From an uncultured Alphaproteobacteria bacterium (GTDB lineage: Bacteria; Pseudomonadota; Alphaproteobacteria; HIMB59; GCA-002718135), in the NCBI GenBank assembly GCA_902553945.1, contig CACDMT010000001.1, positions 7,239 through 71,238 of the forward strand: 64,000 nucleotides of DNA, written 5' to 3'. The notes under the pieces are model-generated. The model was not told the DNA's origin and made no database searches. It saw nothing but the letters and a program-made list of their open reading frames with translations. Each line of letters starts with the position of its first letter. Within the stretch, counting starts at the first letter, position 1. The position numbers and the translations under genes were made by a program. This document shows, piece by piece, positions 7,756 to 59,128 of this stretch.

Positions 7756-7760
7756 AAAAA

Positions 7761-8561: not shown

Positions 8562-8578
8562 ATTTTTCTCCTTTATCT

Positions 8579-27854: not shown

Positions 27855-27863
27855 ATAATAAAT

Positions 27864-27902
27864 TAAAAAAATAAAAAGAGGGCGTTAAATAAGCGCCCTC
27901 TT
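27864..27902 (-). terminator. Rho-independent terminator/attenuator after the PotD-like binding-protein gene
   Basis: 9-bp GC-rich stem aagagggcg (27876-27884) / cgccctctt (27894-27902) with a 9-nt loop. On the minus strand it is followed by TTTTTATTTTTTT (27864-27875). Confidence 0.65.
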
Positions 27903-27918
27903 AATAAAATAATAAATT

Positions 27919-28926: not shown

Positions 28927-29113
28927 TTTCCCTCCATATATAAATTTTTATAATTAAAGCAGTAATTTAAATTGAAGTCAAATTAACAATCGTTGATTTA
29001 GATATAAAATATATATTTATTCATAAAATTAGGCAATAATTGGCTTTTTTAAGTTTATTTAAAAAATATTAATCTATAAATTATGATTAGTATTAAAATT
29101 CAATATAAATATT

Positions 29114-31029: not shown

Positions 31030-31826
31030 CCAGATCAGAAAATTACACTAAATATCTTTTAGCTTGTTTAACTGGTTTAATAGTAGCTGCATTATATGCA
31101 CCAATAGTTTTAACAATCTTTTATTCTTTTTATAAATCAAGAAAAGGAAAGGTGGACTGGGGTTCTTTTTCTTATGAGCCATATACAAAATTAATATTTG
31201 AAAGACAGATATTAGAATCCTTAATGAACTCAATTTATGTGGGTGTGGTCACAGTAATTTGTTCTGTAATTATTGGTTTTTATTTTGCAAACTATTACCA
31301 TACGAGTAAAAGCAAAATGAAAGAATTTTTGCAGTTTATTATCTTTCTTCCCTTTTTATTACCACCAATTATAACAGGTTTATCACTCCTGATATTTTTT
31401 AGAGAAATAAATCTTCCAAGATCCTTAAATACTGTTGTAATTGGTCATACAATATTTGTTCTAGCAATAGTATTTAAAATTATTTTAAATAAGTTAGAAA
31501 CTCTTAAACCTTCTTTAATGGAGTCTGCGTACGATTTAGGAGCAAGTAAATGGCAGGCATTTTATTATGTTTTACTTCCAAACATTAAATTATCTCTAAT
31601 AATAGCAGGACTTTTAGCATTTACTATTTCATTAGATGAAACTTTAATCACATTATTCTTGATTGGAAATGACACTACTTGGCCAATAAAACTCTGGGCA
31701 AAAATGAGGGTAGGATTTTCTAAACAAGTCAATGCTTCAGTAACATTAATATTGATACTAACATCATTATTAGTATTATTAATAGCAAGTATAATATCAA
31801 GATCTGAAAGAAAAATAATGTATTGA
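31026..31826 (+). CDS. ABC transporter permease (PotC type)
   Basis: 266 aa, EAA-type loop ESAYDLGASKWQAFYYVLLPNIK. Confidence 0.85.
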   Translation: MTRSENYTKYLLACLTGLIVAALYAPIVLTIFYSFYKSRKGKVDWGSFSYEPYTKLIFERQILESLMNSIYVGVVTVICSVIIGFYFANYYHTSKSKMKEFLQFIIFLPFLLPPIITGLSLLIFFREINLPRSLNTVVIGHTIFVLAIVFKIILNKLETLKPSLMESAYDLGASKWQAFYYVLLPNIKLSLIIAGLLAFTISLDETLITLFLIGNDTTWPIKLWAKMRVGFSKQVNASVTLILILTSLLVLLIASIISRSERKIMY

Positions 31827-31830
31827 TACA

Positions 31831-32604
31831 ATGGATAAAAGATTATTAAATAAAAAAATAGTTGTTACTGGTGGCTCTAGAGGAATAGGGGCCGGCATTG
31901 TGAAAAGACTTTTTGATGAAGGTGCTGAAGTAATCATAGCCGATATTAAAGAGGATTTAGCTAAAAAATTAATTGAAGATTTAGATACAAAAAAAGTAAC
32001 ATTCTTTCAAACTGACTTATCAGAAGAAAATGAAATAATTAAACTAATTGATTTTACTAAAAGTCACTGGGGCTCAATGGATATTTTGATTAATAATGCT
32101 GGTATAGAAGATGGTTTTATGTTGTCAGATCAATCGTATGAAAAATATAGAAAAACTATGAAAGTAAATTTAGATGCTCCATTTTTATGTTCAAAATACT
32201 CTCTCCCATTATTAGAAAAATCAAAGTCAGCAAGAATAATAATGATTTCATCTATTCAAGGTGTAAGAGGATACAAAGGCAATATTTCTTATAATACAGC
32301 TAAAGGTGGTCTTATAAATATGACCAGAGTACTCGCAGTAGAATTAGCAGAAAAAAATATACTTGTTAATTCAGTTGCTCCAGGTTTTATAAATACGCCA
32401 ATGTCTGTAATGAAAGATGGAAATTTAGAGTGGGATACAGATTGGTTTAAGGATGTATATCTTAAATATGGAAAATTGCCTATGGGTAGATATGGTCATC
32501 CAGATGACATTGCAGGTGCTGTCTATTTCTTTTGCTCAGAGGATAGTAAATATGTAACAGGTCAGACTTTACTTGTTGATGGAGGTGTTTCAGTTACTTT
32601 TTAA
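31831..32604 (+). CDS. Short-chain dehydrogenase/reductase (SDR)
   Basis: 257 aa. TGGSRGIGAG, NNAG, YNTAKGG (YxxxK). Starts 4 bp after the potC-like stop. Confidence 0.85.
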   Translation: MDKRLLNKKIVVTGGSRGIGAGIVKRLFDEGAEVIIADIKEDLAKKLIEDLDTKKVTFFQTDLSEENEIIKLIDFTKSHWGSMDILINNAGIEDGFMLSDQSYEKYRKTMKVNLDAPFLCSKYSLPLLEKSKSARIIMISSIQGVRGYKGNISYNTAKGGLINMTRVLAVELAEKNILVNSVAPGFINTPMSVMKDGNLEWDTDWFKDVYLKYGKLPMGRYGHPDDIAGAVYFFCSEDSKYVTGQTLLVDGGVSVTF

Positions 32605-32606
32605 AT

Positions 32607-33743
32607 ATGAAAATTACAAAAATAGAAGTTCATGTAGTTGGCCCTGAAGATGAGCGCTACACTTGGTCAGAAGATATTGAAGAAGTATATCAAAGTAACA
32701 CTTTAATTAAAATTTATACTGATGAAGATATTATAGGAGAGGCAGCTGTATGGAATGCAACATATTTTGAGTATGATAAGTATACCGCTGAGTCACTTAG
32801 ACATTTACTGCCAATATTAATTGGAAAGGATCCTCTTAACAGAGAAGAAATACTTTATGAAATAAGACCTAGGGTTTTTCCTCAGCCACCTGGTGCGCAA
32901 GCTTTAATTGATTGTGCGTTATGGGATATTATCGGAAAAAAAAGCAAAACTCCAATTTATAAAATTCTTGGAGGAAGAAGAGATAAAATTAAATCATATG
33001 CAAGTACAGTAATGTATGACACTATTGATCAATACTTAAAGGTAGTAGAAGATATGAAAGAAAAAGGTTTTTCTGCTGTTAAGTTTCATACCTATTGTAT
33101 TCCAAAAAAAGATTTAGAGTTAGCTGAAGCTGCAAGGAAAGCATTTCCTTCTATGTCTTTTATGATTGATGCTGAAAATAATTATGACTTAGAAAGTTCA
33201 ATTTATGTAGCAAAAAAATTAGAAAAACTTGACTTTACATGGTTTGAAGCTCCTTTACCGGATTATGATTTTGCGGGATATAAAAAAATTACAGATAGTG
33301 TTGGAATAAAAGTTATTCCATCAGGCAATTGGGTTCTTGACCTTCAAAGATTTTCAGAAGCAATTAATAATAAAGTTTGGTCGGCAACAAGAACTGATAT
33401 GGCAATGATGGGAGGAATAACTAATTGTAAAAAAGCTATGGATTTATCAGCGGCCGGAGGCCTTGATTGTGAAATTATGTCATGGGGATACACATTAGTA
33501 TCTGTTGCAAATTTACATGTTATGTTATCATCCGATAATTGCACATATTATGAACAACCTTTACCATACAATAATTTTGAGTTTGGTATGAAAGATGTTT
33601 TAAGAACAAATAAAGATGGGTATATCTATGCTCCAACTAAACCTGGCTTAGGTATGGAAATTGATTGGGAAAAAATGAATGAAAAAATTATTCATTCAAT
33701 TTATTGTAATGATGGAAGAAATATTAGCAATGTTCATTCATGA
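32607..33743 (+). CDS. Enolase-superfamily (MR/MLE family) protein, paralog 3, with atypical active-site positions
   Basis: 378 aa. ALWDIIGKKSKTPIYKILGG, MIDAENNY and WFEAPLP ligand contexts are conserved. The third-ligand context reads PSGNW and the His context reads EIMSW (see finding). Confidence 0.75.
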   Translation: MKITKIEVHVVGPEDERYTWSEDIEEVYQSNTLIKIYTDEDIIGEAAVWNATYFEYDKYTAESLRHLLPILIGKDPLNREEILYEIRPRVFPQPPGAQALIDCALWDIIGKKSKTPIYKILGGRRDKIKSYASTVMYDTIDQYLKVVEDMKEKGFSAVKFHTYCIPKKDLELAEAARKAFPSMSFMIDAENNYDLESSIYVAKKLEKLDFTWFEAPLPDYDFAGYKKITDSVGIKVIPSGNWVLDLQRFSEAINNKVWSATRTDMAMMGGITNCKKAMDLSAAGGLDCEIMSWGYTLVSVANLHVMLSSDNCTYYEQPLPYNNFEFGMKDVLRTNKDGYIYAPTKPGLGMEIDWEKMNEKIIHSIYCNDGRNISNVHS

Positions 33744-33778
33744 TTTAATAATATTTTAAATTGTTCTAATACTATTTT

Positions 33779-34186
33779 ATGAAAATAATTATGATTTATT
33801 TATTTATATGCTTTCTTTTAATGACTAATTATAGTTATTCATCAAATCATATAAAAAATTATAAATGTAAAATAAATTTTAGTACTAGTATAAAAAACAT
33901 ATCCCCTCTTGAAATGTCAGCTCCAAAAGAAATTAAAATTAAATATAACTCGGAAACAAATAGTTTAGTTGAATATATTTGGAATTATGAGAGTGTTATT
34001 AATGACTTTGAATTAATGAATAATAAAAGTAATTCAGAATTTATTGAAATAGCTCGTAAAGGATTTAAAAAAACTTTATCTAATAAAGATATAAGAAATG
34101 GAATATATTTTAAGTTATATTTTAATGATTTAAAAGCTAATCTAAGTAAGCAATTTATTAGACCTGTTAACTATAAATGTTTCTAG
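33779..34186 (+). CDS. Small secreted hypothetical protein
   Basis: 135 aa with a predicted signal peptide (MKIIMIYLFICFLLMTNYSYS). No family recognised. Two Cys only, each within an NYKC motif. Confidence 0.4.
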   Translation: MKIIMIYLFICFLLMTNYSYSSNHIKNYKCKINFSTSIKNISPLEMSAPKEIKIKYNSETNSLVEYIWNYESVINDFELMNNKSNSEFIEIARKGFKKTLSNKDIRNGIYFKLYFNDLKANLSKQFIRPVNYKCF

Positions 34187-38195: not shown

Positions 38196-39228
38196 AAAAA
38201 TTTTTATACGAAATGATAATAATAAATTATTTTTATACGGTTATAATTTACACACAGAAAACCCAGGTGATGAGCTGCCATTAAGTGATATTTCTAGACC
38301 ACATATGCGATGGAACCCATCTAGAGAAGAATGGGTAACGTATTCATCAAGAAGAAAAGATAGAACTTTTTTTCCACCAAAAGAATATTGCCCTCTTTGT
38401 CCTGGTGCTAATTTAAATTATCCAACTGAAATTCCTTTTTCAAATTTTGAGGTAGCAGTTTTTCCTAATAGATGGGCAAGTTTCAATTCTCATGCAGATA
38501 ATGTAACTATAGAAAATATATATACAAAACCATCAAAAGGGGAATGTGAAGTTGTCGTTTATTCATCAGAACACTTAAGTACCTTAGCAGACATGTCTGA
38601 AGAAAGAGTCGAGTTGTTAATTGGAGTTTGGGTAGATAGATATAAAGAGTTATTAAAAATTAATGATGTTAAATATATTCTTCCATTTGAAAATAGAGGT
38701 GTAGAATGTGGAGTTACCCTTCATCATCCTCATGGTCAAATTTATGCTTATCCTTTTATTCCGCCTGTAATTAAAAAGGAAATTGAAGCATTTAAAAAAG
38801 AAAATTTTATAATGAAAATAATTAAAAGTTCAGAAGAAAAGTATTATGTTAATAAAAACGAGCATTTTATTGCTTTAGTCCCACCTTTTGCAAGATACGC
38901 TTATGAAGTTTGGATCGTCCCAAGAAGACAAATACCAGGTCCATGGAAATTTAATAACAATGAAATTAATTCTTTTGCAAAAATTATACAGAAGGTTGTA
39001 AATGGTTATGATAAATTTCTTGAAAAAAAATGTCCTTATATTATGGGATTACATGCATCACCAAAATTAGAAGACGATACTTTTCATTTTCATGTTGAAT
39101 TTTACCCTCCTTTAAGACATGGAGATAAACCAAAAGTACTTGCTGGTTCAGAGTCAATGGCAGGGGTATTTATAATGGATGTTCTTCCTGAGGACTCTGC
39201 AAAGATATTAAGAAAGTTTATGCAATGA
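38179..39228 (+). CDS. galT: Galactose-1-phosphate uridylyltransferase (HIT-superfamily GalT)
   Basis: 349 aa. CPLCPG zinc motif, FENRG, active-site HHPHGQIYAYPF. 17-bp overlap with galE. Confidence 0.85.
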   Translation: MKKIHKKIFIRNDNNKLFLYGYNLHTENPGDELPLSDISRPHMRWNPSREEWVTYSSRRKDRTFFPPKEYCPLCPGANLNYPTEIPFSNFEVAVFPNRWASFNSHADNVTIENIYTKPSKGECEVVVYSSEHLSTLADMSEERVELLIGVWVDRYKELLKINDVKYILPFENRGVECGVTLHHPHGQIYAYPFIPPVIKKEIEAFKKENFIMKIIKSSEEKYYVNKNEHFIALVPPFARYAYEVWIVPRRQIPGPWKFNNNEINSFAKIIQKVVNGYDKFLEKKCPYIMGLHASPKLEDDTFHFHVEFYPPLRHGDKPKVLAGSESMAGVFIMDVLPEDSAKILRKFMQ

Positions 39229-39641
39229 AATCAATTAAGGAAAAAATTACTTATTATAAAGAAAGTCTTGATCTATTTGATGATGGAATGGAAAAGTATA
39301 AATTCTTAATTGATCAAGCTAAAAATGCTAAAAGATTTCCAGAAGAATTTAGAAATGAAACATTTAAAGTTTCTGGCTGTCAAGCACAAGTATGGTTAGT
39401 CCCAATTTATGATAATAATAAATTATCATTTCATTATGATTCTGATGCTTTTATTTCTAAAGGAATGATTACTATTTTATGTGATATTTATCAAAACAGA
39501 GAGCCTGAAGAAATTATAAATTCTGATTTTACTCTTCTTAATATGTTGGATCTTGACATATTATTAACACCAGGAAGAAGAAATGGGGTTTATTCAATGT
39601 TAGAAAAAATTAAAGAATATGCTAATTCATATTTAAAATAG
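39225..39641 (+). CDS. sufE: SufE-family sulfur acceptor protein
   Basis: 138 aa. VSGCQAQVWL active-site cysteine motif and DSDAFISKGM segment. ATGA overlap with galT. Confidence 0.8.
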   Translation: MKSIKEKITYYKESLDLFDDGMEKYKFLIDQAKNAKRFPEEFRNETFKVSGCQAQVWLVPIYDNNKLSFHYDSDAFISKGMITILCDIYQNREPEEIINSDFTLLNMLDLDILLTPGRRNGVYSMLEKIKEYANSYLK

Positions 39642-39716
39642 TAATAACAACAAAGTCAGTTAATAAATAATAATACCAGTGTAATTTTTTACAAAGAGTA
39701 TAAATCATTATTTAAA

Positions 39717-40586
39717 ATGAAAATATTGTTATTAGGTGTTTTATTAATCTGTCTTAATGGATTTACTGGATCAACTTTTGATGCAATAACTAAATTTTTA
39801 AGTATTAATAATTATAAGTGGTTTCATTATTATTCTATAGGTTTAACAATAGCACTTATAACTTTAATAATATTTTTAAGTTTTCAAGGTGGTATTAAAA
39901 AACATATTTTATTAGAAAAGAAGCAATATTATTTTTTACCCTTATTAAGAGGTTTTCATTTTATTATCATTACACCAATAATATTTTATTCACTAAAGTA
40001 TATGCCTATAAATATTTTTACTACAATAGTAATGACAACTCCTTTCTTTCTGATAATTTTTGCAAAATTTATTTTAAATGAAAAACTTAACACTATAAGT
40101 TGGATATCTATAATTATAGGATTTATTGGTGTTATAGTAGTTTTAAAGCCTACTATTACGAGCATAAACATTTATATATTTCTTGTCTTATTTGTTGCTA
40201 TATCAAATGCTTTAAGTTTTACAGTAGTCAGTAAATATTCATATATGGCCACAACTTATGGTTTTACTTTTTATGCTTTTCTCCTTCCTACTCTTTTTTC
40301 ATATTTATTTTTTTTTACTAACCCAATGATACCTTCAGGAAAAGAATTTTTATTATTTGCTAGCTCTGGAATAATATTAATGATTTCTGCTTGGGCCTTC
40401 ACTGCTGCCTTTCATATTGCAGGTAAATATAGCAGTATAATAAGTCCTTTTGTTTTTTTACAAATATTGTGGGGCACTTTATATGGAATTATTTTCTTTT
40501 CTGAAAAGATTAGTACTTTATCTATTATAGGAATTTTTATAATAATAACTTCTGGCTCAATTGCCATTTATAATAAAAATAAATAG
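39717..40586 (+). CDS. EamA/DMT-superfamily transporter
   Basis: 289 aa, about 10 TM segments arranged as two similar halves, typical of the drug/metabolite transporter family. Confidence 0.65.
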   Translation: MKILLLGVLLICLNGFTGSTFDAITKFLSINNYKWFHYYSIGLTIALITLIIFLSFQGGIKKHILLEKKQYYFLPLLRGFHFIIITPIIFYSLKYMPINIFTTIVMTTPFFLIIFAKFILNEKLNTISWISIIIGFIGVIVVLKPTITSINIYIFLVLFVAISNALSFTVVSKYSYMATTYGFTFYAFLLPTLFSYLFFFTNPMIPSGKEFLLFASSGIILMISAWAFTAAFHIAGKYSSIISPFVFLQILWGTLYGIIFFSEKISTLSIIGIFIIITSGSIAIYNKNK

Positions 40587-40592
40587 AATAAA

Positions 40593-41024
40593 TTAATACT
40601 GTGGTTTAATGGTTATTAATTTTTCATCAATCCACGAAGTTATGCCATTTTTTGCATTATAAATAACATTATTAAATTTTTTTATTTCCATCATTTTGGC
40701 AATTATCTTAGTTCTTCTTCCAGTTCTACAAATTAAGATTATTGGCTTACCTTCATCTATTTCTAAACGTAATTTTTCATACCATTCATCATAATTATAA
40801 TTTCCATCTTTATCAAAAAAGGTAAGCAGAATGCTTTTTGGAACAACTCCAGTTTGGTCCCATTCAGAACTTCTTCTTATGTCTACAATTGGAATATTAT
40901 TTTTTGATAATTCTTTAATTTGCTCATTATTTACATCGACAATATCTGCAAATGCAAATTTTATAGTTAATAAAAAACCTATAAATTTTATAAAAAATCT
41001 AATTAACATTATATTTACTCTCAT
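40593..41024 (-). CDS. Rhodanese-domain sulfurtransferase, probably exported
   Basis: 143 aa with a hydrophobic N-terminus (alternative start Met at 41009). Active-site loop ILICRTGRRT (CRxGxR). Confidence 0.75.
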   Translation of the reverse strand: MRVNIMLIRFFIKFIGFLLTIKFAFADIVDVNNEQIKELSKNNIPIVDIRRSSEWDQTGVVPKSILLTFFDKDGNYNYDEWYEKLRLEIDEGKPIILICRTGRRTKIIAKMMEIKKFNNVIYNAKNGITSWIDEKLITIKPQY

Positions 41025-42344: not shown

Positions 42345-42894
42345 TAAATTAAAAAAAAAAATTTCTTCTAATAAGAAGACACATCCTGAGATCTTAGAAG
42401 AGATAATAAGAGTTGATCATGCTGGTGAGTATGGTGCAACTAAAATATATGACGGCCAAATTGCAATTTTTGGAAAAAATACAAAAATTGGAAAAACTAT
42501 TCAACACATGGCAGATCAGGAGCAAGAGCATATTAATAAATTTAATGAATTAATATTGGAGCATAGGGTCAGACCTACTGCTCTCTTACCAATTTGGAAT
42601 ATTGCTGGTTTTGCACTTGGAGCATCAACTGCCCTACTTGGAGAAAAGGCTGCTATGGCATGTACTGTTGCGGTTGAAAAAGTAATTGGTGAGCATTATA
42701 ATGATCAATTAGCTTTATTAGAGGATGATCATAAAGAGTTAAAAAAAATAATTTCAAAATTTAGAGATGATGAGTTGGAACATCATGATATTGGAATAGA
42801 ACACGATGCAGAAAATGCACCAGGGTATAAAATTATGACGAAAGTAATAGAATTAGGTTGTAAGACAGCTATAGCTATTTCAAAAAAAGTTTAA
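42328..42894 (+). CDS. coq7: Demethoxyubiquinone hydroxylase (di-iron COQ7 family)
   Basis: 188 aa. RVDHAGEYGA, EQEH, VAVEKVIGEHY, DDELEHH di-iron carboxylate motifs. Confidence 0.85.
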   Translation: MVKKNNKLKKKISSNKKTHPEILEEIIRVDHAGEYGATKIYDGQIAIFGKNTKIGKTIQHMADQEQEHINKFNELILEHRVRPTALLPIWNIAGFALGASTALLGEKAAMACTVAVEKVIGEHYNDQLALLEDDHKELKKIISKFRDDELEHHDIGIEHDAENAPGYKIMTKVIELGCKTAIAISKKV

Positions 42895-43445
42895 TTTTCA
42901 AGTTCAGTATCCCAATACAAATAATCGCGCCAGGTATCATGAAGAAAATTTGGTGGAAAGTTTCTTCCATTATTTTGAAGAAGTATTGATGAAGGCTGAA
43001 AAGGTTTTTTATTTAATTTCATATCAGTATTATGAATTAATCTCCTGCCTTTTTTTAAATTACAAGTTGTACAAGCAGATACAACATTTTCCCATGTAGT
43101 TTTTCCATCTAAACATTTGGGAACTAAATGATCAAAAGTTAATTCATTTGCAGAAAAACGATTTACACAATATTGACATGTAAAATTATCCCTTAAAAAA
43201 ACATTAAATCTTGTAAATGCTGGTTTTCTTTTTGGCGTAACATAATCTTTCAAAGCAATAACACTTGGCAATTTAAATGTTATGTTTGGTGAATGAACTT
43301 CTTGATCATATCTTTCAATAATTGATACACGTTCAAGAAAAACTGATTTTATTGCATCTTGCCAAGAACAAAGAGATAAAGGATAATAAGATAAAGGTCT
43401 GAAATCAGCATTTAATACTAAAGCAGGATTATTAAATATACTCAT
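42891..43445 (-). CDS. HNH endonuclease-domain protein
   Basis: 184 aa. CQYC...FDHLVP...WENVVSACTTCNLKKG HNH zinc-finger nuclease motif. Confidence 0.75.
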   Translation of the reverse strand: MSIFNNPALVLNADFRPLSYYPLSLCSWQDAIKSVFLERVSIIERYDQEVHSPNITFKLPSVIALKDYVTPKRKPAFTRFNVFLRDNFTCQYCVNRFSANELTFDHLVPKCLDGKTTWENVVSACTTCNLKKGRRLIHNTDMKLNKKPFQPSSILLQNNGRNFPPNFLHDTWRDYLYWDTELEN

Positions 43446-43509
43446 TTTATTTTTTATTAAACCAAATCATAAATATTAAATGTTACTATAATATGATGAT
43501 TCGATTGCA

Positions 43510-44184
43510 TTAAATAATTTTTTTAATAAATTCTTGAAATAAATTAATTGTTTTTAATGATATTGTGTGTTTATCATCATCAATTAAATGTGACTCGTAA
43601 GAATAATTATTTTTTTTAAGATAATTTATTGATTTATCAAAATTTACAACTGGTAAAATATTATCTTGAGATCCATGAGAAATAAATATGGGTGTTTTTT
43701 GTAAAATTTTATTTAATTTTTCTTCTTTTTGAATAATTCGTCCAGAAATAATTCCTATACCTGCGAGCCTTTCATTCAATCTTCTTGCTAATTCAAAGGT
43801 AATAATTCCACCTTGTGAAAATCCCATCACAACACAATCATTAATAGTTAAGTTAAGCTGTTCCAATGTATAATTAATTGTTTCCTTTAACTTTAAGATT
43901 GTTGATTCAATTTCTTGATTTATAGATTCATATTCTTTTGGTCCAGCATCAGCAATGTAAACACCTCCGGGATATAAATCAAACCATTGATATCCCATTA
44001 TGTTACCATTAATAATACCGGGTCCATTTAATGATATATAGTGCATTCCCCATTCATCTCTATCTAAAGGCTCAGCTAAATGCATAAAATTAGAAGCATT
44101 ATCTCCATAGCCATGAAGCATTACCATTAATTTTTGAGGCTTATCATGCTTTGAAAATGAGGGGCCTCTAAGTAAATTATCCAT
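43510..44184 (-). CDS. Phospholipase/carboxylesterase-family alpha/beta hydrolase
   Basis: 224 aa. LHGYGDN, nucleophile elbow GFSQGG, and HGSQD. The C-terminal segment has a candidate catalytic His. Confidence 0.7.
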   Translation of the reverse strand: MDNLLRGPSFSKHDKPQKLMVMLHGYGDNASNFMHLAEPLDRDEWGMHYISLNGPGIINGNIMGYQWFDLYPGGVYIADAGPKEYESINQEIESTILKLKETINYTLEQLNLTINDCVVMGFSQGGIITFELARRLNERLAGIGIISGRIIQKEEKLNKILQKTPIFISHGSQDNILPVVNFDKSINYLKKNNYSYESHLIDDDKHTISLKTINLFQEFIKKII

Positions 44185-44500: not shown

Positions 44501-44683
44501 ATGGGAATTCATTTTAATCACAAATCAAAAGCGGGAGACCGCAAAATGCAAAAAGAGCTAAAACTTAAAATGAAAGCTGAAGAACGTAAAAAAAAACGTG
44601 AAGAACAAGAGCGATTAAAACAAGAAGATGAAATGAAAAAGTTGGAGGAACTTACTAGACCTGACAAACCTCCCACTAAATAA
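44501..44683 (+). CDS. Small lysine/glutamate-rich hypothetical protein
   Basis: 60 aa, highly charged, coiled-coil-like (KELKLKMKAEERKKKREEQERLKQEDEMKK). Occupies an otherwise empty gap. No family recognised. Confidence 0.3.
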   Translation: MGIHFNHKSKAGDRKMQKELKLKMKAEERKKKREEQERLKQEDEMKKLEELTRPDKPPTK

Positions 44684-44701
44684 AGTTTTATTATATCTTT
44701 A

Positions 44702-45511
44702 TTATACTGGATGATTGTTTCTTATAAACTTTTTTAATATTTCTAAAGCTTGTCCTGCTTCCTCTAGTAATATCATATGACCACAGTTTGGTATTATTTC
44801 AACTTCTGATGTTTTAATATGTTCGGCTAATTTTTTTCCCTCTTTTAAAGGACACATTCTATCTCGATCACCAAGAATATTTATAGCTGGACATTTTATC
44901 TTTTTTGCCGCTTCAAAACCATTTTTATAATTATCACAAGCTCTAAAATCAACACCAAGAGCATTTTTAACTGAACCATTAATAACAATTGATCCACCCA
45001 AATTAATATGGTGAAGACCAGGTACTGGATGGCCACCAAAATGTCCAGCAGGACCATGAGCCCAATCCATCATAAGATCTACTGCCTTAGGGTCTCCTTT
45101 TTCTGCTAAATCTAAAAGTTCAGGATTCATTGGTATTGCTCCAGCTCCTCCCATCAAACCTATAGATTTTATTTTATCTGGAAACTGTGAAGCACATTCC
45201 AAAACAACCAAACAACCTTGTGAATGACCAACTAAAGAGGCTTCTTCCATTTCAACTGAGTCAATTACATCTGCAATCCATTTTCCTTGTTCTTCAATAG
45301 ACTCTAATGCAGGGCCCTCTGAATACCCATGTCCAGGAAGATCAATTGCTAAAACACTATAACCATGAAATGCAAAATACCTAGTTTGTAAAACCCATGT
45401 TATATGACTTAATCCACTACCATGAATAAAAATAATAAGAGGTTTTTTTTTATCAAATGGCCTTCCTCCAGTAGATGCAAAAACCTCTTTATTATTTACT
45501 TTAAACTTCAT
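44702..45511 (-). CDS. Alpha/beta-fold hydrolase
   Basis: 269 aa. HGSG oxyanion region, nucleophile elbow GHSQG, C-terminal CGHM. ATGA-type 4-bp overlap with metY. Confidence 0.75.
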   Translation of the reverse strand: MKFKVNNKEVFASTGGRPFDKKKPLIIFIHGSGLSHITWVLQTRYFAFHGYSVLAIDLPGHGYSEGPALESIEEQGKWIADVIDSVEMEEASLVGHSQGCLVVLECASQFPDKIKSIGLMGGAGAIPMNPELLDLAEKGDPKAVDLMMDWAHGPAGHFGGHPVPGLHHINLGGSIVINGSVKNALGVDFRACDNYKNGFEAAKKIKCPAINILGDRDRMCPLKEGKKLAEHIKTSEVEIIPNCGHMILLEEAGQALEILKKFIRNNHPV

Positions 45512-46818
45512 TTATTAGCTACCAATCTTGGTTTTTTTGCTGCTCTAAAACCATCTTCAAAATCATTGATAATATCATCAATGTCTTCAATCCCTACTGA
45601 AAGTCTAATCATATCATGAGACATGTTTGCTAATTTCAAAGTGGCTTCATCCATTTGTGAATGTGTCGCTGATGCTGGATGAATAACAAGTGTTCTTGTA
45701 TCACCAACATTTGCTAAATGAGAAGCTAGCTTAACGTTATCGATAAATGCAGCTCCTGCTTCTTTTCCTCCTTTAATACCAAAAGCAATCATTGAACCAG
45801 TACCTTTAGGTAAAAGTTTTTTTGCTAACTCATAGTCAGGATTATCTTTAAGGCTTGCATGAGAAACCCAAGCAACACTCTCGTGATTACTTAAATATTC
45901 AACCATCTTTAATGCATTTGAACAATGTTTTTCCATTCTTACAGATAAAGTTTCAATTCCTTGAAGAACATTCCATGCATTTTGAGGGCTTAAGCATGGG
46001 CCCATGTCTCTCATTCCTTCAGCTCTAGCTTTCATTGTAAAAGCTACTGGACCAAATTCTTCTGCAAAAGATAAGCCATGATAACCTTCATAAGGTTCAG
46101 TCATGGTTGGAAATTTATCAGTTTTAAGAAAATCAAATTTTCCTCCTTCTACCAATATTCCCGCCATTGAAGATCCATGACCAGCCATCCATTTCGTTAA
46201 AGAATGAATAACAAAATCCGCACCATGTTCTAATGGCTTAAATAAGTATGGTGTTTGATAGGTGCTATCAATTACTACAGGTATGCCAGCTTCATGAGCC
46301 ATTTTAGATATCTCTGGCAAATTCATTAGTTCATTACCTGGGTTACCAACTAATTCTCCATAAATACATTTAGTATTTTCTTGTATAGCGTTTTTGAATC
46401 CTTCCGTATCTCTTGGTTTAACAAAAGTTGCTTTAATACCAAATTTAGGAAGAGTTAAACGAAATAGATTTACAGTTCCTCCATATAATTGAGAAGATAC
46501 TACTACATGATCTCCAGCATTACATAATGTCATAATGGTTAAAAAAATAGCACTCATACCGGAAGCTGTAGCTAAAGCTGCTGTTCCTCCTTCTAATGCA
46601 GCAACTCGTTCTTCTAAAACTTGAACTGTTGGATTTGAAATTCTGCTGTATATATGACCACCACGCTCTAAATTAAATAAAGCAGCTGCATGGTCAACAT
46701 CATCAAACATATATGATGTAGTTTGATATATCGGCACTTGTCTAGAGCCTGCATTTTTACTTGGCATGTAGCCAGCATGCAAACTCAACGTATCAAATTT
46801 ATAAGTTTTTGGATCCAT
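45508..46818 (-). CDS. metY: O-acetylhomoserine (thiol)-lyase / sulfhydrylase
   Basis: 436 aa. TLSLHAG, IYSRISNPT, HSLTKWMAGHG (PLP-lysine), and DTRTLVIHPASATH typical of the MetY/Cys-Met PLP family. Confidence 0.9.
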   Translation of the reverse strand: MDPKTYKFDTLSLHAGYMPSKNAGSRQVPIYQTTSYMFDDVDHAAALFNLERGGHIYSRISNPTVQVLEERVAALEGGTAALATASGMSAIFLTIMTLCNAGDHVVVSSQLYGGTVNLFRLTLPKFGIKATFVKPRDTEGFKNAIQENTKCIYGELVGNPGNELMNLPEISKMAHEAGIPVVIDSTYQTPYLFKPLEHGADFVIHSLTKWMAGHGSSMAGILVEGGKFDFLKTDKFPTMTEPYEGYHGLSFAEEFGPVAFTMKARAEGMRDMGPCLSPQNAWNVLQGIETLSVRMEKHCSNALKMVEYLSNHESVAWVSHASLKDNPDYELAKKLLPKGTGSMIAFGIKGGKEAGAAFIDNVKLASHLANVGDTRTLVIHPASATHSQMDEATLKLANMSHDMIRLSVGIEDIDDIINDFEDGFRAAKKPRLVANK

Positions 46819-46819
46819 A

Positions 46820-48451
46820 TTAAATCTCCTTTGCTTTCTTTCTTAGTTCAAATTTCTGTATTTTTCCCGTAGAAGTTTTTGGCAATTCCCCAAAGATAAC
46901 ATATTTTGGCCTTTTAAATCCAGCCATATTTTCTTTACAAAATTGAATTATTTCCTCATCCGTGACATTTTTACCTGGTGACAATTCTACAAAAGCACAA
47001 GGTGTCTCACCCCACTTTTCATCTGGTTTAGCTACAACTGCAACTAATGATACTGCGGGATGTTTTGCTACTACATTTTCTACCTCTACAGATGATATAT
47101 TTTCACCACCTGAAATTATAATGTCTTTTGAGCGATCTTTAATTTGAATATACCCATCCGGATAAACAACGGCTAGATCTCCGGAATGAAACCATCCATT
47201 TTTCATGGAAGTTTTTGTAGCTTCTTTATTTTTATAATATCCTTTCATTACAATGTTACCACGAATAAGTATTTCACCCATAGTTTCACCATCCATTGGC
47301 ACGCGATGATAAGTTACAGGATCAGCAACAATAACTTCTTCTGTATTTGGATATCGTACTCCTTGCCTTGAATTTATGTCAGCTTTTTCAGCTTTAGAAA
47401 GTCCATTCCACTCTTCATTCCATGAACACTGTAAAATATGACCATAAGTTTCAGTTAAACCATAAACATGCATAACTTCAAAACCAAGATTATCCATCTT
47501 TTCAAGTATTGCACTTGTTGGAGGCGCACCTGCAGTTAAAACAAATACTTTATGATTAATTTCTTTTTTATCTTTTTTATCTGCATTAGCAATTAAACTT
47601 AAAACTATTGGCGCACCTCCAAAATGAGTAACTTTATGTTGATCAATTAAATTATAAATATCTTTTGCAATAATATACCGACAACATATAACTTTTGCGT
47701 GTATTAATGCTGCTGTCCAAGGATAGCCCCATCCGTTGCAATGAAACATTGGAACAGTATAAAGAAATGTTAATTTATTAGGCATATTCCATGCAGTTAC
47801 GCTTCCTGTTGACATCAAATAAGAGCCTCGATGATGGTATACAACACCCTTAGGTTTTCCAGTTGTTCCAGAGGTATAACTTAATGAAATTGCTTGCCAC
47901 TCATCTTCAGGTAAAGACCAATTAAAGTTATTATCACCTGACATAAGAAAATCTTCATAAGTCCAATTACCAATTTTTTCCCCCTCACCTTCTTTAAAAA
48001 TGGCTTGGTCATCATGAATATCAATTATTGGAATTTTTTTACCATAAATTTTAAGTGCTTTTTTTATTATTGGTGAAAATTGAGTGTCAGTAATTAATAA
48101 TTTTGCATCACTATGTTCTAAAATATAGGCAATAGTATCGGGATCGAGCCTTGTATTAATAGTATTAATAACTGCTCCTATCATTGGAATAGAATAATGT
48201 GCTTCAAACAATTCTGGAGTATTAGCTGCAATAATAGAAACTGTTGATCCTTTAGTTATACCTTGTTTACTTAGGGAGCTTGCAAACTTGGTGCATCGAT
48301 TATAAGTTTCAAGCCAAGTATACTTTCTATTACCATAAACTAGTGAGTCGTAATTAGGATATATATCTTTTACACGAGAGATAAAACTTAAAGGAGACAA
48401 TGGAACAAAATTAGCAGAGTTTTTATCTAGATTTGTATTAAAATTATTCAC
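46820..48451 (-). CDS. AMP-dependent acyl-CoA synthetase/ligase (short/medium-chain type; DmdB-like is a hypothesis)
   Basis: 543 aa. YTSGTTGKPKGV AMP-binding motif, YGLTET, GWFHSGD, and C-terminal PKTSTGKIQK. Stop lies 1 bp before the metY start. Confidence 0.85.
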   Translation of the reverse strand: MNNFNTNLDKNSANFVPLSPLSFISRVKDIYPNYDSLVYGNRKYTWLETYNRCTKFASSLSKQGITKGSTVSIIAANTPELFEAHYSIPMIGAVINTINTRLDPDTIAYILEHSDAKLLITDTQFSPIIKKALKIYGKKIPIIDIHDDQAIFKEGEGEKIGNWTYEDFLMSGDNNFNWSLPEDEWQAISLSYTSGTTGKPKGVVYHHRGSYLMSTGSVTAWNMPNKLTFLYTVPMFHCNGWGYPWTAALIHAKVICCRYIIAKDIYNLIDQHKVTHFGGAPIVLSLIANADKKDKKEINHKVFVLTAGAPPTSAILEKMDNLGFEVMHVYGLTETYGHILQCSWNEEWNGLSKAEKADINSRQGVRYPNTEEVIVADPVTYHRVPMDGETMGEILIRGNIVMKGYYKNKEATKTSMKNGWFHSGDLAVVYPDGYIQIKDRSKDIIISGGENISSVEVENVVAKHPAVSLVAVVAKPDEKWGETPCAFVELSPGKNVTDEEIIQFCKENMAGFKRPKYVIFGELPKTSTGKIQKFELRKKAKEI

Positions 48452-48491
48452 TATTCCTCCAAAAAATAAATAGATACTATAAGAAATTAAA

Positions 48492-50726
48492 TTAATTTAC
48501 TAATGGTTTTCCTGTTTCTAATGTGTGTATAATTCTTTCTTGTGTTTTAGGCATCTGGATTAGCTTCATGAAAGCTTCAAGCTCTAAATTATAAAGATCA
48601 TCCTCACTTATATCTGAATTTATATTTGTATTACCTCCACTGAGAACAAAAGCTATCTGTTTACCAACCTCTAAACCATGATCCATAATTTTCTTTTCTC
48701 TATGCAATTTTTCAAGTTTTTCATACATTTTATCTCGAACAGAGTTTCCACCAAGTTTAAATATTGGTTGATTTGGTCTTGAATAATTGTTTTCAATTGT
48801 CTTCAATAAATCAATAGCTGTGGTAAGCTGTCTATCTCTATTAATAACAACTTTATCTTTATTTAGGAAAAATTGATTAGGCTTAGCTTCATTTGGAGAA
48901 GCTGAGGTAACAGCATAACCTATAAGATCAAATACTTTCATTGATGCAAATTCAGAATTTTCTTTACCTTCAGGTGTTTGAAGCCACCGCCATAACATTT
49001 CTTTACAGCCACCACCTGCAGGAATTAAACCAACCAAGGATTCAACAAGGCCTAATACAACGTTAGTATGTGATACTGAATAATCACAGTGAAGAACAAC
49101 TTCAAATCCTCCTCCAATTGCTAAACCTGATGGTGCGGCTATAAAAGGTTTTTCAGCATATTTAATTGTTTTACAAGTTTTTTGAAAATCAATGATAAAT
49201 TTTTCAATTTTTGACCACTCATTATTTTTTGCAAAATCCATCACATAATTTAAATTTACTCCTGCAGAAAATTGCATTGCTTCATTAATTACAATTGTGC
49301 TTTTATTATTTTGAGCTGCTTGATTAAGTGCAAGCATTGAATCAGTATCAAGGGCATTTGCTTTAGTTGTAAATTCTACAATTTGATAAGATGATGCATC
49401 TTTAACATTAGCAGATGGATTATTAAAAGTTTTTTTTAGTTTTAAAGAACGCAAATTATCAATACTTTTATCTAAATATCCAGGTCTTTTTTCAAATATA
49501 AAATTGTTTTTAATTGAATTAAAATAATTTATGTCAGAATTTTCTTTAATAAAAGCATTGGTATTAATATTAGATAACATTTCAAATGGGCCTACTGTCC
49601 AATTAAAACCAAGTCTGAGAGCATCATCTATATCAATATATTTCGAGGAAACATCTGGTATTAGAAATGCAGCATAACGAATAACTTTTGTTAAGATTGA
49701 TTTAGCGTATTCTCCATACTTATCTTTTCTTTCAATAAGTTTTTTTATATTTATTTTATCACCTAAGTCTAAATTTATTTTTTTACTCGGGTGGTACTCA
49801 CCTGTGTCTAAGTTAATAGCTTCAAGTATTTTTTTTCCATCTGTTTTATTTATTCTATAAAAACCACCTTTGCCTTTTCTTCCAGTATATCCTGACTCAA
49901 TTAATTTTTTTACTAATGGAATTTCTTTTGCAACTTCATGAAAAGGATCTTCGCTTGGTAATTCTTTTATAAAACTTTTCAGAACATCAGCCATTAGATC
50001 AATACCAATAAGATCGTACAAACCAAAAATACCTGTTTTAGGAATTCCCATTGGTCTTCCAAATATTGCATCTGCTTCCTCAATAGAAATATTTTTTTTA
50101 AATGCTTCTGTCATTGCTACTTGCATTGCATAAACACCTATTCTGTTTCCAATAAAACCAGGTGTATCGTTACAAATAATTACTCCTTTGCCAAGTTGCT
50201 CATCACAAAATAGTTTTAGTGAATTTATTTTTTCAATATCATTTATTGGCTCAGTAACAATTTCCAATAAAGACATATATCGAACGGGATTAAAAAAATG
50301 TGTTATGCAAAAGTTCTTTTTCATTTCATCCGACATATTTGCTGATAATACTTTTAGAGGAATTGTTGATGTATTAGAGGAGACTATTGATGAAGTTTTT
50401 CTTACATTTTGAATTTTTGAGTAAATATCGTGTTTAATATTTATTCTTTCAACAACAGCTTCAACAATCCAATCGGCTTCAGATACTTCTTTGAAATGGT
50501 CTTCAATATTTCCAGTTTTAATTAAACTAGCTTTCATTATCTCAACTAAAAGAGGCGGTTTCGATTTTATTATTCTTTCTTTTGCATTTTCTGTTATTTG
50601 ATTTCTTGACCCTTCTTTGCTTGGTAAGTCTAGTAAAGTTACATTTATACCTGCATTTGCTACTTGAGCAGCAATGCCACTACCCATTGTACCTGATCCT
50701 ATAACTACTACTTTTTTGATATTCAT
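48492..50726 (-). CDS. Bifunctional 3-hydroxyacyl-CoA dehydrogenase / enoyl-CoA hydratase (FadN-like domain order)
   Basis: Start moved to the Met at 50726 (MNIKKVVVIGSGTMGSGIA Rossmann motif); the track ORF runs to 50786. The C-terminal ~260 aa are crotonase-like (GLAIGGGFEV). Confidence 0.85.
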   Translation of the reverse strand: MNIKKVVVIGSGTMGSGIAAQVANAGINVTLLDLPSKEGSRNQITENAKERIIKSKPPLLVEIMKASLIKTGNIEDHFKEVSEADWIVEAVVERINIKHDIYSKIQNVRKTSSIVSSNTSTIPLKVLSANMSDEMKKNFCITHFFNPVRYMSLLEIVTEPINDIEKINSLKLFCDEQLGKGVIICNDTPGFIGNRIGVYAMQVAMTEAFKKNISIEEADAIFGRPMGIPKTGIFGLYDLIGIDLMADVLKSFIKELPSEDPFHEVAKEIPLVKKLIESGYTGRKGKGGFYRINKTDGKKILEAINLDTGEYHPSKKINLDLGDKINIKKLIERKDKYGEYAKSILTKVIRYAAFLIPDVSSKYIDIDDALRLGFNWTVGPFEMLSNINTNAFIKENSDINYFNSIKNNFIFEKRPGYLDKSIDNLRSLKLKKTFNNPSANVKDASSYQIVEFTTKANALDTDSMLALNQAAQNNKSTIVINEAMQFSAGVNLNYVMDFAKNNEWSKIEKFIIDFQKTCKTIKYAEKPFIAAPSGLAIGGGFEVVLHCDYSVSHTNVVLGLVESLVGLIPAGGGCKEMLWRWLQTPEGKENSEFASMKVFDLIGYAVTSASPNEAKPNQFFLNKDKVVINRDRQLTTAIDLLKTIENNYSRPNQPIFKLGGNSVRDKMYEKLEKLHREKKIMDHGLEVGKQIAFVLSGGNTNINSDISEDDLYNLELEAFMKLIQMPKTQERIIHTLETGKPLVN

Positions 50727-50828
50727 TTGAAATGTAAAATCCAGCTTATATAAGAAAAAATTGCTATAGGAAAATAATTTAAGCATAATAGTGGAAATTA
50801 ATATAAATATCTCTTATAGGCCGAAAAA

Positions 50829-57095: not shown

Positions 57096-57208
57096 AATTT
57101 GGCAGGTTCCTTTACAAATTATCGAGGCATAAATCAAAATAAAGTAACATATATTTTAAAATATCACCAATTATTGACTTAGATAAATATATAAATATAA
57201 GCATTTTT

Positions 57209-57278
57209 ACACCGATTTGATACAGCTTGCGGGTGGAGCAATGATCAGCTAAAGCGTTATAAATCCATCTAAAGCTCA
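57209..57278 (+). promoter_or_regulatory. SAM-II-like (SAM-II/SAM-V class) riboswitch candidate in the metX leader
   Basis: The leader reads ACCGAUUUGAUACAGCUUGCGGGUGGAGCAAUGAUCAGCUAAAGCGUUAUAAAUCCAUCUAAAGCUC. The GAUUU, AGCUUG and 3' UAAAGCU elements recall the SAM-II consensus. AAGCU (57272-57276) can pair with AGCUU (57223-57227) as a pseudoknot. It sits 17 nt upstream of the metX ATG. Confidence 0.55.
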
Positions 57279-57294
57279 TCAAACGGTCACTATT

Positions 57295-58452
57295 ATGAGT
57301 GATACAAATATAATAATTAAAAATGACCCTAAACTTGAATGTGATATTGCATTAATTGAAAATGCAAATTTTAATTTAGAGTCTGGAGAAGTATTAAAAA
57401 ATTTAAAAATTGCTTTTAAAACTTTTGGTCAATTAAATAATAAAAAAACAAATGCGATCTTAGTTTGTCATGCACTTACTGGAGACCAATACGTAAGTGG
57501 TACTAATCCATTAACAGGTAGAGAGGGATGGTGGTCAAAAATGGTCGGACCAAATAAACCTGTAGATACAAATAAATTTTATGTAATTTGTTCTAATGTT
57601 ATTGGTGGATGTTCAGGATCAACTGGACCAAAAGAAATAAATGATAAAAATAGTGAAATTTATGGTGGAGATTTTCCATCCATAACAATAAAAGATATGG
57701 TTAATGCCCAATCTCTTCTTGTAGATAAATTAAATATTAAGAAATTATTTTCTGTAATTGGTGGTTCAATGGGTGCAATGCAAGCACTTCAATGGGCAAT
57801 TGATTATCCTGAAAAAATATCAAATGTAATTCATATTGCAGGCGCTTTAAAACATTCTGCTCAAAATATAGCATTTCACGAAGTAGGTCGCCAAGCAATT
57901 ATGAATGATCCAGTTTGGAAAAATGGTAAGTACTTTGAAAGTAATGAAAGACCTGAACGGGGTTTATCTGTTGCTAGAATGATTGCTCATATAACATATC
58001 TTTCTGAAGATGCTATGCATCGAAAATTCGGAAGAAAATTACAATCAAGAGATATTATTTCATTTGGATTTGATGCTGATTTTCAAGTAGAAAGTTACTT
58101 AAGATATCAAGGTAAGTCATTTGTAGAAAGATTTGATGCTAATTCATATCTTTATTTAACTAGAGCTATGGACTACTTTGATCATGACGATACATTTAAG
58201 AAAAAAATTGAATTTAGTCACAAACCAAATAATCATATAAAATATTTGATTGTTTCATTTACTTCCGATTGGTTATTTCCAACAACAGAAAGTAAAATTA
58301 TTGTTAATAATTTAAATAATCTTGCAAGACAGGTAAGTTTTTTAGAAATTGAAACTGACAAAGGTCATGATAGTTTTTTATTAGATGAACCACAATTAGA
58401 TAGTTTAATAAATGGTTTTTTAATAAGTAATTTTGGTAAAATAAATGAATAA
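57295..58452 (+). CDS. metX: Homoserine O-acetyltransferase
   Basis: 385 aa. NAILVCHALTGD, nucleophile elbow GGSMGAMQALQW, and C-terminal TDWLFP...GHDSFL typical of MetX. Confidence 0.9.
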   Translation: MSDTNIIIKNDPKLECDIALIENANFNLESGEVLKNLKIAFKTFGQLNNKKTNAILVCHALTGDQYVSGTNPLTGREGWWSKMVGPNKPVDTNKFYVICSNVIGGCSGSTGPKEINDKNSEIYGGDFPSITIKDMVNAQSLLVDKLNIKKLFSVIGGSMGAMQALQWAIDYPEKISNVIHIAGALKHSAQNIAFHEVGRQAIMNDPVWKNGKYFESNERPERGLSVARMIAHITYLSEDAMHRKFGRKLQSRDIISFGFDADFQVESYLRYQGKSFVERFDANSYLYLTRAMDYFDHDDTFKKKIEFSHKPNNHIKYLIVSFTSDWLFPTTESKIIVNNLNNLARQVSFLEIETDKGHDSFLLDEPQLDSLINGFLISNFGKINE

Positions 58453-59128
58453 AATCGCTAGCATAAGGAAAGATTGGAAACTAATCGAAACATTAATTGA
58501 AGAAAATAGAAGTATATTAGATATTGGCTGTGGAGATGGTATGCTTATGGAGCAACTTGAAAAAAATCTAAATGCCAAAACTTATGGAATAGAGATAAAT
58601 AGAGATTTGGCATCCAAAGCTATTGCAAGAGGATTTAATGTCATTCAAGGAAATGCTGAAATTGATCTATCTCAATACTCAAATCATAGTTTTGACTATG
58701 TTATTTTAAGTCAAACATTGCAAGCAATGATGAAACCTAAAGAAATACTATCAGAACTATTAAGAATAGGATCAAGGGCTATTGTGTCTTTTCCAAACTT
58801 TGGTCATTGGAAAATTCGATTTCAACTATTAATTTCAGGAAGAATGCCTGTTACAGAAGGTTTACCTTATACTTGGTATGACACACCAAATATTCATTTC
58901 TTTACAATTAAAGACTTTTTAAAACTTTGTAATGATATGAATATAGTGATTGAAAAAAGTATTGGCTTATCATCTAGAGGAAGACAGTTTGATATTAATG
59001 ATTCCTTAACAGGTGTTAATTTTTTTACTCATGAAGCAATATTTTTACTTAGTTATAAAAATTATGAACCTATAAAAATAAAATCTTCAAAAAAAATATT
59101 TAGTAAAAATTCTGTAATCGCAAGTTAA
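58445..59128 (+). CDS. metW: Methionine biosynthesis protein MetW
   Basis: 227 aa. ILDIGCGDG SAM-methyltransferase-fold motif and SFPNFGHW..R segment typical of MetW. 8-bp overlap with metX. Confidence 0.85.
   Translation: MNKIASIRKDWKLIETLIEENRSILDIGCGDGMLMEQLEKNLNAKTYGIEINRDLASKAIARGFNVIQGNAEIDLSQYSNHSFDYVILSQTLQAMMKPKEILSELLRIGSRAIVSFPNFGHWKIRFQLLISGRMPVTEGLPYTWYDTPNIHFFTIKDFLKLCNDMNIVIEKSIGLSSRGRQFDINDSLTGVNFFTHEAIFLLSYKNYEPIKIKSSKKIFSKNSVIAS

Follow-up and report, generated by a model that had tools for sequence, protein, structure and literature searches.

Dimethylsulfoniopropionate (DMSP) demethylation of the SAR11 type is among the ocean's largest organic-sulfur fluxes and sets how much sulfur leaves as gas. 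For SAR11 it is established that DMSP is converted to 3-methylmercaptopropionate (MMPA), then to methanethiol and, via MetY, to methionine. In Candidatus Pelagibacter ubique, the genes of the corresponding cluster are named dmdA, dmdB and dmdC (PMC5069961, PMC6850173). Orthologues of DmdD are absent from Pelagibacter, and alternate enzymes have been hypothesised instead (PMC5069961). MetY condenses methanethiol with O-acetylhomoserine, and its use of methanethiol in SAR11 is assumed in the literature (PMC5069961); direct methanethiol capture has been measured in Ruegeria (PMC7157515). Here we describe a four-gene locus encoding a FadN-like enzyme, an acyl-coenzyme A (CoA) ligase, MetY and a serine hydrolase on a 64-kb stretch of contig CACDMT010000001.1, which was analysed as a whole and is called the window below (GC content about 29%). 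The lineage is HIMB59/AEGEAN-169, the former SAR11 subclade V, and not Pelagibacteraceae proper. We consider it rather probable that the locus joins a SAR11-type breakdown of MMPA to the capture of the released methanethiol by MetY.

The four genes are co-directional on the minus strand. They encode a FadN-like bifunctional enzyme of 744 amino acids with an N-terminal 3-hydroxyacyl-CoA dehydrogenase and a C-terminal crotonase/enoyl-CoA hydratase (48492-50726), an acyl-CoA ligase of 543 amino acids with a GTG start (46820-48451), the O-acetylhomoserine sulfhydrylase MetY of 436 amino acids (45508-46818), and an uncharacterised alpha/beta-fold serine hydrolase of 269 amino acids (44702-45511). 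The open reading frame (ORF) of fadN spans 48492-50786; its true start is the ATG at 50726, where the family models and the orthologue in a related locus (L002) begin. The fadN stop codon is separated by 40 bp from the ligase start, and GGAGG precedes the ligase GTG. A single base lies between the ligase stop codon (46822-46820) and the metY ATG at 46818, and the Shine-Dalgarno sequence of metY, AAAGGAG (46826-46832, minus strand), is located inside the last ligase codons. The metY and hydrolase genes share a 4-bp ATGA overlap. A previous reading of this DNA made from the letters alone (the sequence-only reading) had claimed these four genes, their three junctions and their family labels; all four ORFs were found where it had placed them, each junction matches the sequence, and the labels were upheld by Pfam and NCBIfam scans. 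From this layout the four genes are predicted to form one operon, in which translation of metY would use the ligase mRNA and that of the hydrolase the metY mRNA. A promoter and terminator scan was uninformative in this AT-rich DNA: shuffled sequence contained more promoter-like sites, and none of the terminators was of use.

Compared with the dmdA-hydrolase-dmdB-dmdC cluster of Ca. Pelagibacter ubique, the operon has the same ligase and hydrolase families and a start/stop overlap of the hydrolase gene with its neighbour, and a window-type FadN is encoded upstream of dmdC in some Pelagibacteraceae loci. It differs in that it lacks dmdA and dmdC and carries metY between ligase and hydrolase. The SAR11 metY is located elsewhere behind its own SAM-V riboswitch (PMC5069961), whereas the window metY is leaderless with its ribosome-binding site in the ligase gene. 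The DmdB-DmdC-DmdD(AcuH) pathway of Ruegeria pomeroyi and R. lacuscaerulensis has the same predicted chemistry, with a two-glutamate crotonase that frees methanethiol, and its ligase shares the pocket His/Trp pair and the catalytic Lys (PMC6850173). In contrast to that pathway, the window has a distant ligase of a different NCBIfam family, a hydratase fused to a dehydrogenase, a separate serine hydrolase and no DmdD orthologue. FadN of the FadN(FadB)-FadA-FadE operon of Bacillus and Staphylococcus shows the same dehydrogenase-then-crotonase order, but the window operon contains neither a thiolase nor an acyl-CoA dehydrogenase gene. With the direct sulfhydrylation by methanethiol known from SAR11, Corynebacterium and Ruegeria, the window has in common a MetY that matches the family model and the presence of metX-metW, whereas its metY is embedded among presumed methanethiol-source genes and is always followed by a dedicated hydrolase gene. 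In the papers that could be searched, those on HIMB59/AEGEAN-169 genomes among them, we found no report of a dmdB-metY operon, of a universal metY-hydrolase pair, or of FadN and the hydrolase as candidates for the DmdD step; DMSP, methionine and these genes are unmentioned in the genome papers.

The ligase contains the Pfam domains AMP-binding and AMP-binding_C and scored 841 bits with NF006020, the PRK08162 model (cutoff 677). Near-identical metagenomic copies filled the results of a first homology search, which was therefore uninformative on gene context. The closest ligases are 86-90% identical and come from single-cell or metagenome-assembled genomes (MAGs) assigned to HIMB59 or to 'uncultured Alphaproteobacteria'. 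The Pelagibacteraceae counterpart is 65-69% identical and has dmdC upstream and dmdA downstream in 17/17 loci; these flanking genes encode a 587-aa acyl-CoA dehydrogenase with an Acyl-CoA_dh_C domain and a DmdA recognised by NF009133 (602 bits, cutoff 410). In a neighbour-joining tree, a comparison with DmdB that the sequence-only reading had itself suggested, the HIMB59 ligases were sister to the dmd-cluster ligases within PRK08162 and roseobacter DmdB fell far outside. Judged by identity, tree and the 17 loci, the window ligase is orthologous to the ligase of the SAR11 dmdA/dmdC cluster and is classified as a SAR11-type DmdB. Other PRK08162 ligases are found together with DmdC-like dehydrogenases, as in Halomonas and Neptunomonas, or, as in Roseibium, with a DmdA homologue. 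To the crystallised DmdB of R. lacuscaerulensis the window ligase is a distant relative (245 bits). Alignment to 6IHK showed that the FHxNxW motif (His/Trp acyl pocket) and the catalytic Lys in TGK are kept, in agreement with an ANL-superfamily fold. These DmdB pocket residues were dropped as evidence, the T. thermophilus fatty-acyl-CoA synthetase keeping them too. A ligase 67% identical to that of the window was also present on a contig of a 'Desulfobacula' MAG (L005, 6001-7629) and grouped with the HIMB59/Pelagibacteraceae clade; its presence on that contig may be due to a binning error or to transfer.

The FadN-like protein contains the Pfam domains 3HCDH_N, 3HCDH and ECH_1. It aligned end to end with NF052272 (Staph_FadB) in the same architecture, the score of 486 bits lying far below the cutoff of 999. 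In an alignment to 5JBW both catalytic glutamates of crotonases were present in its C-terminal domain (GGGFE and LVESLVGLIPAGGG), and the dehydrogenase His/Glu pair is kept as well (HFFNP...LLEIV), so both activities are expected. It is not a stand-alone crotonase (about 260 aa) orthologous to SPO3805/AcuH; the best stand-alone crotonase matches reached about 43 bits. The protein is 52-62% identical to the FadN encoded directly upstream of dmdC in two Pelagibacteraceae loci (L006, L014), for which an identity of 58% was also obtained. A canonical beta-oxidation operon, SDR-ligase2-thiolase-FadN2-ACAD, is present in the HIMB59 order as well (L166, L169), with genes for a short-chain dehydrogenase/reductase (SDR) and an acyl-CoA dehydrogenase (ACAD). 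Identity is only 36-40% between the window FadN and FadN2 and only 25-27% between the window ligase and ligase2. Because of these low values, the window genes are regarded as a separate set of paralogues, which groups with the genes linked to dmd. Two further observations concern these enzymes. In L166 (4887-11803) the order ligase2-thiolase-FadN2-ACAD-NDUS4 is found, and in a commoner variant (L167/L168, 8811-11791) only thiolase and ACAD remain; in genomes of this type, the metY operon might hold the only remaining FadN and ligase. In the dmd cluster of L014, an ECHDC3-like stand-alone enoyl-CoA hydratase (NF006008, 372 bits) and a 149-aa ORF are encoded between ligase and hydrolase (7637-8899), the hydratase being a second candidate methylthioacryloyl-CoA hydratase in that lineage.

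The hydrolase matches Pfam Abhydrolase_1/6, and its best family match is the alpha/beta domain of AcoC (PRK14875). The catalytic triad Ser97 (GHSQGC), Asp217 and His245 is invariant and a DxxACxxY cap motif is conserved. The AlphaFold model (pLDDT 80) gave Foldseek TM values of 0.7-0.8 with many esterases, as expected for an alpha/beta-fold serine hydrolase. The best PDB sequence match was 5FRD, an archaeal esterase crystallised with CoA (PMC4861933); the nearest annotated relatives, the AcoC domain and this esterase, handle thioesters or CoA. In 10/17 Pelagibacteraceae loci, a 258-aa hydrolase 43-44% identical to that of the window is encoded between ligase and dmdA with an ATGA overlap with dmdA, and among the family representatives the best match of these proteins outside their own group was the window hydrolase. 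As a leading idea, the possibility that the hydrolase is a small MetX-like acetyltransferase was rejected, a full metX-metW being present and the SAR11 homologue being encoded between dmdB and dmdA, where O-acetylhomoserine plays no part. In another locus (L137, 1-3357), a HIMB59-type hydrolase 85% identical to that of the window is convergent with a FadN2-ACAD pair, a further case of this hydrolase beside genes for acyl-CoA oxidation.

MetY was recognised by the equivalog models NF006004 (O-acetylhomoserine aminocarboxypropyltransferase; 649.5 bits, cutoff 636) and TIGR01326 (604 bits, cutoff 495) and by Pfam Cys_Met_Meta_PP at 2.9e-129, and it has the motif HSLTKW with the lysine for pyridoxal phosphate (PLP). 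The genes for homoserine O-acetyltransferase and its partner, metX-metW, are located on the plus strand at 57295-59128 and were identified by NCBIfam matches (metX, 57295-58452, NF001209, 512 bits versus 331; metW, 58445-59128, TIGR02081, 236 versus 189.5). They lie about 10.5 kb from metY, in line with the roughly 10 kb given in the sequence-only reading. That reading had also placed a riboswitch of the S-adenosylmethionine (SAM) type before metX. Core motifs of SAM-II are visible by eye at about 57209-57260 (CACCGAUUUG...GCUUGCGGGUGG...AGCUAAAG) within a weak SAM-II-like leader at 57199-57273 on the plus strand, but with RF00521 (SAM_alpha), whose gathering score is 36, the leader reached only 10.4 bits (E 4.3), and the riboswitch is thus unconfirmed. 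Wider Rfam scans of the window returned no riboswitch match.

The four-gene arrangement recurs in seven further loci (L002, L003, L004, L084, L105, L108, L112) with identities down to 73% for the ligase and down to 73% for MetY, and is not due to chance. A metagenome scan with a hydrolase alignment yielded 80 HIMB59-type loci, 66 of them with upstream sequence, and in 66/66 of these metY directly precedes the hydrolase gene. The pair was found in three contexts. Type A is the window arrangement, argH divergent to fadN-ligase-metY-hydrolase-esterase-HNH. In type B, metY-hydrolase follows a gene for homocysteine S-methyltransferase (PF02574) behind SAM-II/SAM-V leaders, and SAM-V of one such locus (L118) scored 45.2 bits, above the gathering score. 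In type C, metY-hydrolase is divergent from rplM-rpsI-asd-hom, and in many cases a further Cys/Met PLP paralogue comes next. Both deep clades of the MetY tree contain type A sequences; type B branches as the sister of one of these type A clades, whereas type C falls within the other. The ligase-linked type A therefore seems to be the ancestral state in the order, from which the pair would later have been copied or moved as a unit. The existence of the pair away from the ligase in types B and C makes metY-hydrolase, rather than metY-ligase, the tightest link.

Two short DNA elements are conserved among type A loci. The AAAGGAG sequence 7-9 nt before the metY start was kept in 10/10 other type A loci examined, and an Rfam scan of the type A metY leader revealed no riboswitch. 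In the divergent argH/fadN intergenic region, a block at 50791-50822 (about 32-45 nt, GCGCCTA-TAAGAGATATTTATATTAATTTCCAC) is nearly invariant across 7 type A loci, the FadN proteins of which diverge by up to 46%. It has no matching Rfam family and is probably a shared promoter or operator region of the operon.

Some features of the other two contexts are of interest in themselves. Tandem SAM-II and SAM-V leaders precede homocysteine S-methyltransferase-metY-hydrolase in L083 (7322-7504), L118 (3438-3503) and L143 (3366-3441); to our knowledge, such a tandem was previously described as peculiar to bhmT of Ca. P. ubique. The type B operon of L083 adjoins the polyphosphate genes PPK2 and Ppx. In many type C loci, such as L122, L125 and L136 (6880-8199), the gene directly after the pair encodes a second PLP enzyme of Cys/Met metabolism (439 aa) that is 42-44% identical to MetY, and in others (L128, 6833-7723) a 296-aa protein without a Pfam match replaces this paralogue.

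To cover independent lineages, we looked up the loci of the five most similar hydrolase-family representatives outside the HIMB59 and Pelagibacteraceae groups, with GC contents of 33-53%. Partner genes stood beside the hydrolase gene in 5/5 cases: metY-hydrolase in L170 (36% GC) and L171 (45%), metY-hydrolase-FadN-DmdC-like dehydrogenase with a GcvT-family gene 3 kb further on in L172 (53%), FadN-ligase-hydrolase in L173 (33%; ligase 67-69% identical), and hydrolase-FadN in L174 (49%). L172 encodes a FadN that resembles the window type more than FadN2, together with a dehydrogenase 48% identical to SAR11 DmdC. Methanethiol is the one metabolite that links dmd genes to MetY. The sequence-only reading had treated the hydrolase as an appendix of the operon; judged by gene neighbourhoods, it is instead an association hub across lineages, the centre of a recurrent set comprising window-type FadN, PRK08162 ligase, DmdC-like dehydrogenase, MetY and DmdA.

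Starting from the gene identities, junctions, orthology relations and recurrent neighbourhoods observed, we infer which substrates are used, in which order they are converted and what FadN and the hydrolase contribute. The SAR11-type DmdB would activate MMPA, the product of DMSP demethylation, to MMPA-CoA, which would be converted to methylthioacryloyl-CoA by a DmdC-like acyl-CoA dehydrogenase with its gene at another genomic site. The crotonase domain of FadN would then hydrate methylthioacryloyl-CoA, with the hydrolase acting as a thioesterase that helps to free methanethiol; both proteins would stand in for DmdD, and they are candidates for this step since Pelagibacter has no DmdD. Finally, MetY would join methanethiol and O-acetylhomoserine supplied by MetX/MetW to give methionine. 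Strong comparative support, from the SAR11 dmd-cluster relatives and from the distant lineages, suggests such a release and capture of methanethiol.

Several observations weigh against this coupling. NF005426, the NCBIfam equivalog for DmdB, is of the roseobacter type and gave the window ligase 342 bits against a cutoff of 822. Taken alone, this failure would have wrongly dismissed the ligase, and the assignment was reversed because of the gene context in Pelagibacteraceae; the DmdB-like ligase of the sequence-only reading thus stands as the sister of the SAR11 dmd-cluster ligase but not as a protein of the roseobacter model, and annotation pipelines based on that model miss ligases of the SAR11/HIMB59 type. 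The enzymatic activities of recombinant SAR11 proteins, including the MMPA-CoA ligase activity of the cluster ligase, were reportedly shown by Reisch and colleagues in 2011 (Nature). Orthology of the ligase does not fix its substrate because the specificity of DmdB and DmdC is broad, the characterised enzymes also taking ordinary short fatty acids (PMC5395565). Foldseek against the PDB with the AlphaFold hydrolase returned generic esterases, lipases and C-C hydrolases and gave no clue to the substrate. Neither dmdA nor dmdC was detected by tblastn in the 64-kb window, so that the release-and-capture idea of the sequence-only reading gained the comparative support named above but no dmd partner nearby; strain HIMB59 has a dmdA (PMC7487153). 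The DmdC-like dehydrogenase of the HIMB59 order is located in an ordinary beta-oxidation operon with a thiolase. Among the Pelagibacteraceae dmd clusters, 7/17 lack the hydrolase and only 2/17 contain FadN. Furthermore, metY-hydrolase also occurs without a ligase in types B and C, and MetY could equally use sulfide to form homocysteine, which the type B context fits.

A tentative extension, which we consider possible but rather unlikely, is a complete beta-oxidation-like cycle for the thioether acid in which the serine hydrolase takes the place of the thiolase. Methylthioacryloyl-CoA would be formed as above by the ligase and a DmdC-type dehydrogenase, and the crotonase domain of FadN would hydrate it to the hemithioacetal 3-hydroxy-3-(methylthio)propionyl-CoA. 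The dehydrogenase domain of FadN would oxidise the hemithioacetal to the S-methyl thioester of malonyl-CoA, which the hydrolase would cleave to methanethiol and malonyl-CoA beside MetY. In glutathione-dependent formaldehyde oxidation, a dehydrogenase turns a hemithioacetal into a thioester and an alpha/beta serine hydrolase, S-formylglutathione hydrolase, frees the thiol; for the FadN dehydrogenase and the hydrolase this may serve as a mechanistic analogue only, there being no sequence relationship. If true, the malonyl-CoA scheme would explain why a bifunctional FadN and not a plain crotonase travels with the module, and why the hydrolase is a hub partner of metY, FadN, dmdB, dmdC and dmdA in lineages of 30-53% GC. 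The long-missing DmdD function of SAR11 would then have been found, with malonyl-CoA and NADH as products instead of acetaldehyde and CO2.

The coupling of MMPA breakdown to MetY has to be weighed against explanations that separate the two. The operon might be an ordinary module for short- or medium-chain fatty acids, with FadN and ligase here and thiolase and dehydrogenase elsewhere, beside which a mobile metY-hydrolase pair has landed, co-transcribed but metabolically uncoupled. The breadth of DmdB and DmdC specificity is in favour of such a module, as are the wide distribution of PRK08162 ligases in Proteobacteria at 51-60% identity, mostly with no dmdA nearby, the occurrence of the pair in three contexts, and the abundant variant without fadN2 and ligase2 (L167/L168), which raises the possibility that FadN and ligase of the window are the only ones in the cell. 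This explanation leaves open, however, why the hydrolase family is found within the SAR11 dmd cluster and beside FadN, ligase or a DmdC-like gene in L172-L174, and why in L172, an unrelated lineage with 53% GC, metY is accompanied by FadN and a DmdC-like gene. The ligase-linked arrangement is also apparently ancestral in the order, and the ribosome-binding site of metY has been retained inside the ligase gene. We regard an ordinary fatty-acid module with an uncoupled pair as unlikely.

The two other explanations change the substrate. The presence of metY-hydrolase directly after the homocysteine S-methyltransferase gene behind SAM-II/SAM-V leaders in type B, together with the general acceptance of sulfide by MetY enzymes, would suit a route in which 3-mercaptopropionate or a related thiol acid is oxidised, H2S is released, MetY forms homocysteine, and methyltransferases of the betaine or S-methylmethionine type complete methionine; strain HIMB59 has two metY and three bhmT genes and neither metE nor metH (PMC5069961). 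In Pelagibacteraceae, however, ligase and hydrolase are translationally coupled to DmdA, the product of which is MMPA and not 3-mercaptopropionate, and for SAR11, growth with methanethiol and with DMSP as the source of sulfur has been reported (PMC5069961), which makes release of sulfide quite improbable. Still less credible is a route for acrylate or 3-hydroxypropionate from DMSP cleavage, in which acryloyl-CoA formed by the ligase would be hydrated and oxidised by FadN, malonate-semialdehyde-CoA would lose its CoA through the hydrolase, and MetY would be an unrelated passenger. Activity of R. pomeroyi DmdB1 towards acrylate and propionate is measurable (PMC5395565, Table 3), acryloyl-CoA is a substrate of AcuH-type crotonases, and hydratase as well as dehydrogenase functions are available in the module; yet this route offers no reason for the universal metY-hydrolase pairing, and the DmdC-like dehydrogenase partners are not needed for acrylate. 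All three explanations account for the full association pattern less well than does the joining of MMPA breakdown to methanethiol capture.

The surroundings of the operon contain further genes. A small Lys/Glu-rich ORF of about 60 aa (MGIHFNHKSKAGDRKMQKELKLK...) at 44510-44690 on the plus strand is convergent with the hydrolase gene, and a gene of 61-64 aa is called at its position in L082, L084 and L085. At its 3' end, just beyond the hydrolase stop codon, a GGAGG...CCTCC hairpin is followed by Ts. The operon is trailed in every type A locus by genes for an Abhydrolase_2 esterase (224 aa) and a 184-aa HNH-domain protein (42891-44184, minus strand). The latter shows weak matches to the HNH domain of IscB/Cas9d; conserved at 65-90% identity, it behaves as a housekeeping gene and not as a mobile endonuclease. 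SufE and a rhodanese are encoded at 39225-41024. Unrelated to the operon, a cluster at 24944-34186 points to the catabolism of sugar acids; it comprises two genes of the mandelate racemase/enolase family and genes for an SMP-30 lactonase, an aldose epimerase, an SDR and an ABC transporter.

The operon bears on two gaps, namely the methanethiol-releasing enzyme of SAR11, in which DmdD is missing, and the retention of a volatile and toxic thiol for the synthesis of methionine. Together with its relatives, it provides clonable candidates in the form of a FadN paralogue dedicated to this module and a hydrolase that is conserved but uncharacterised. In the abundant HIMB59/AEGEAN-169 lineage, the enzyme that would capture methanethiol is encoded on the same predicted mRNA as the genes that would release it.

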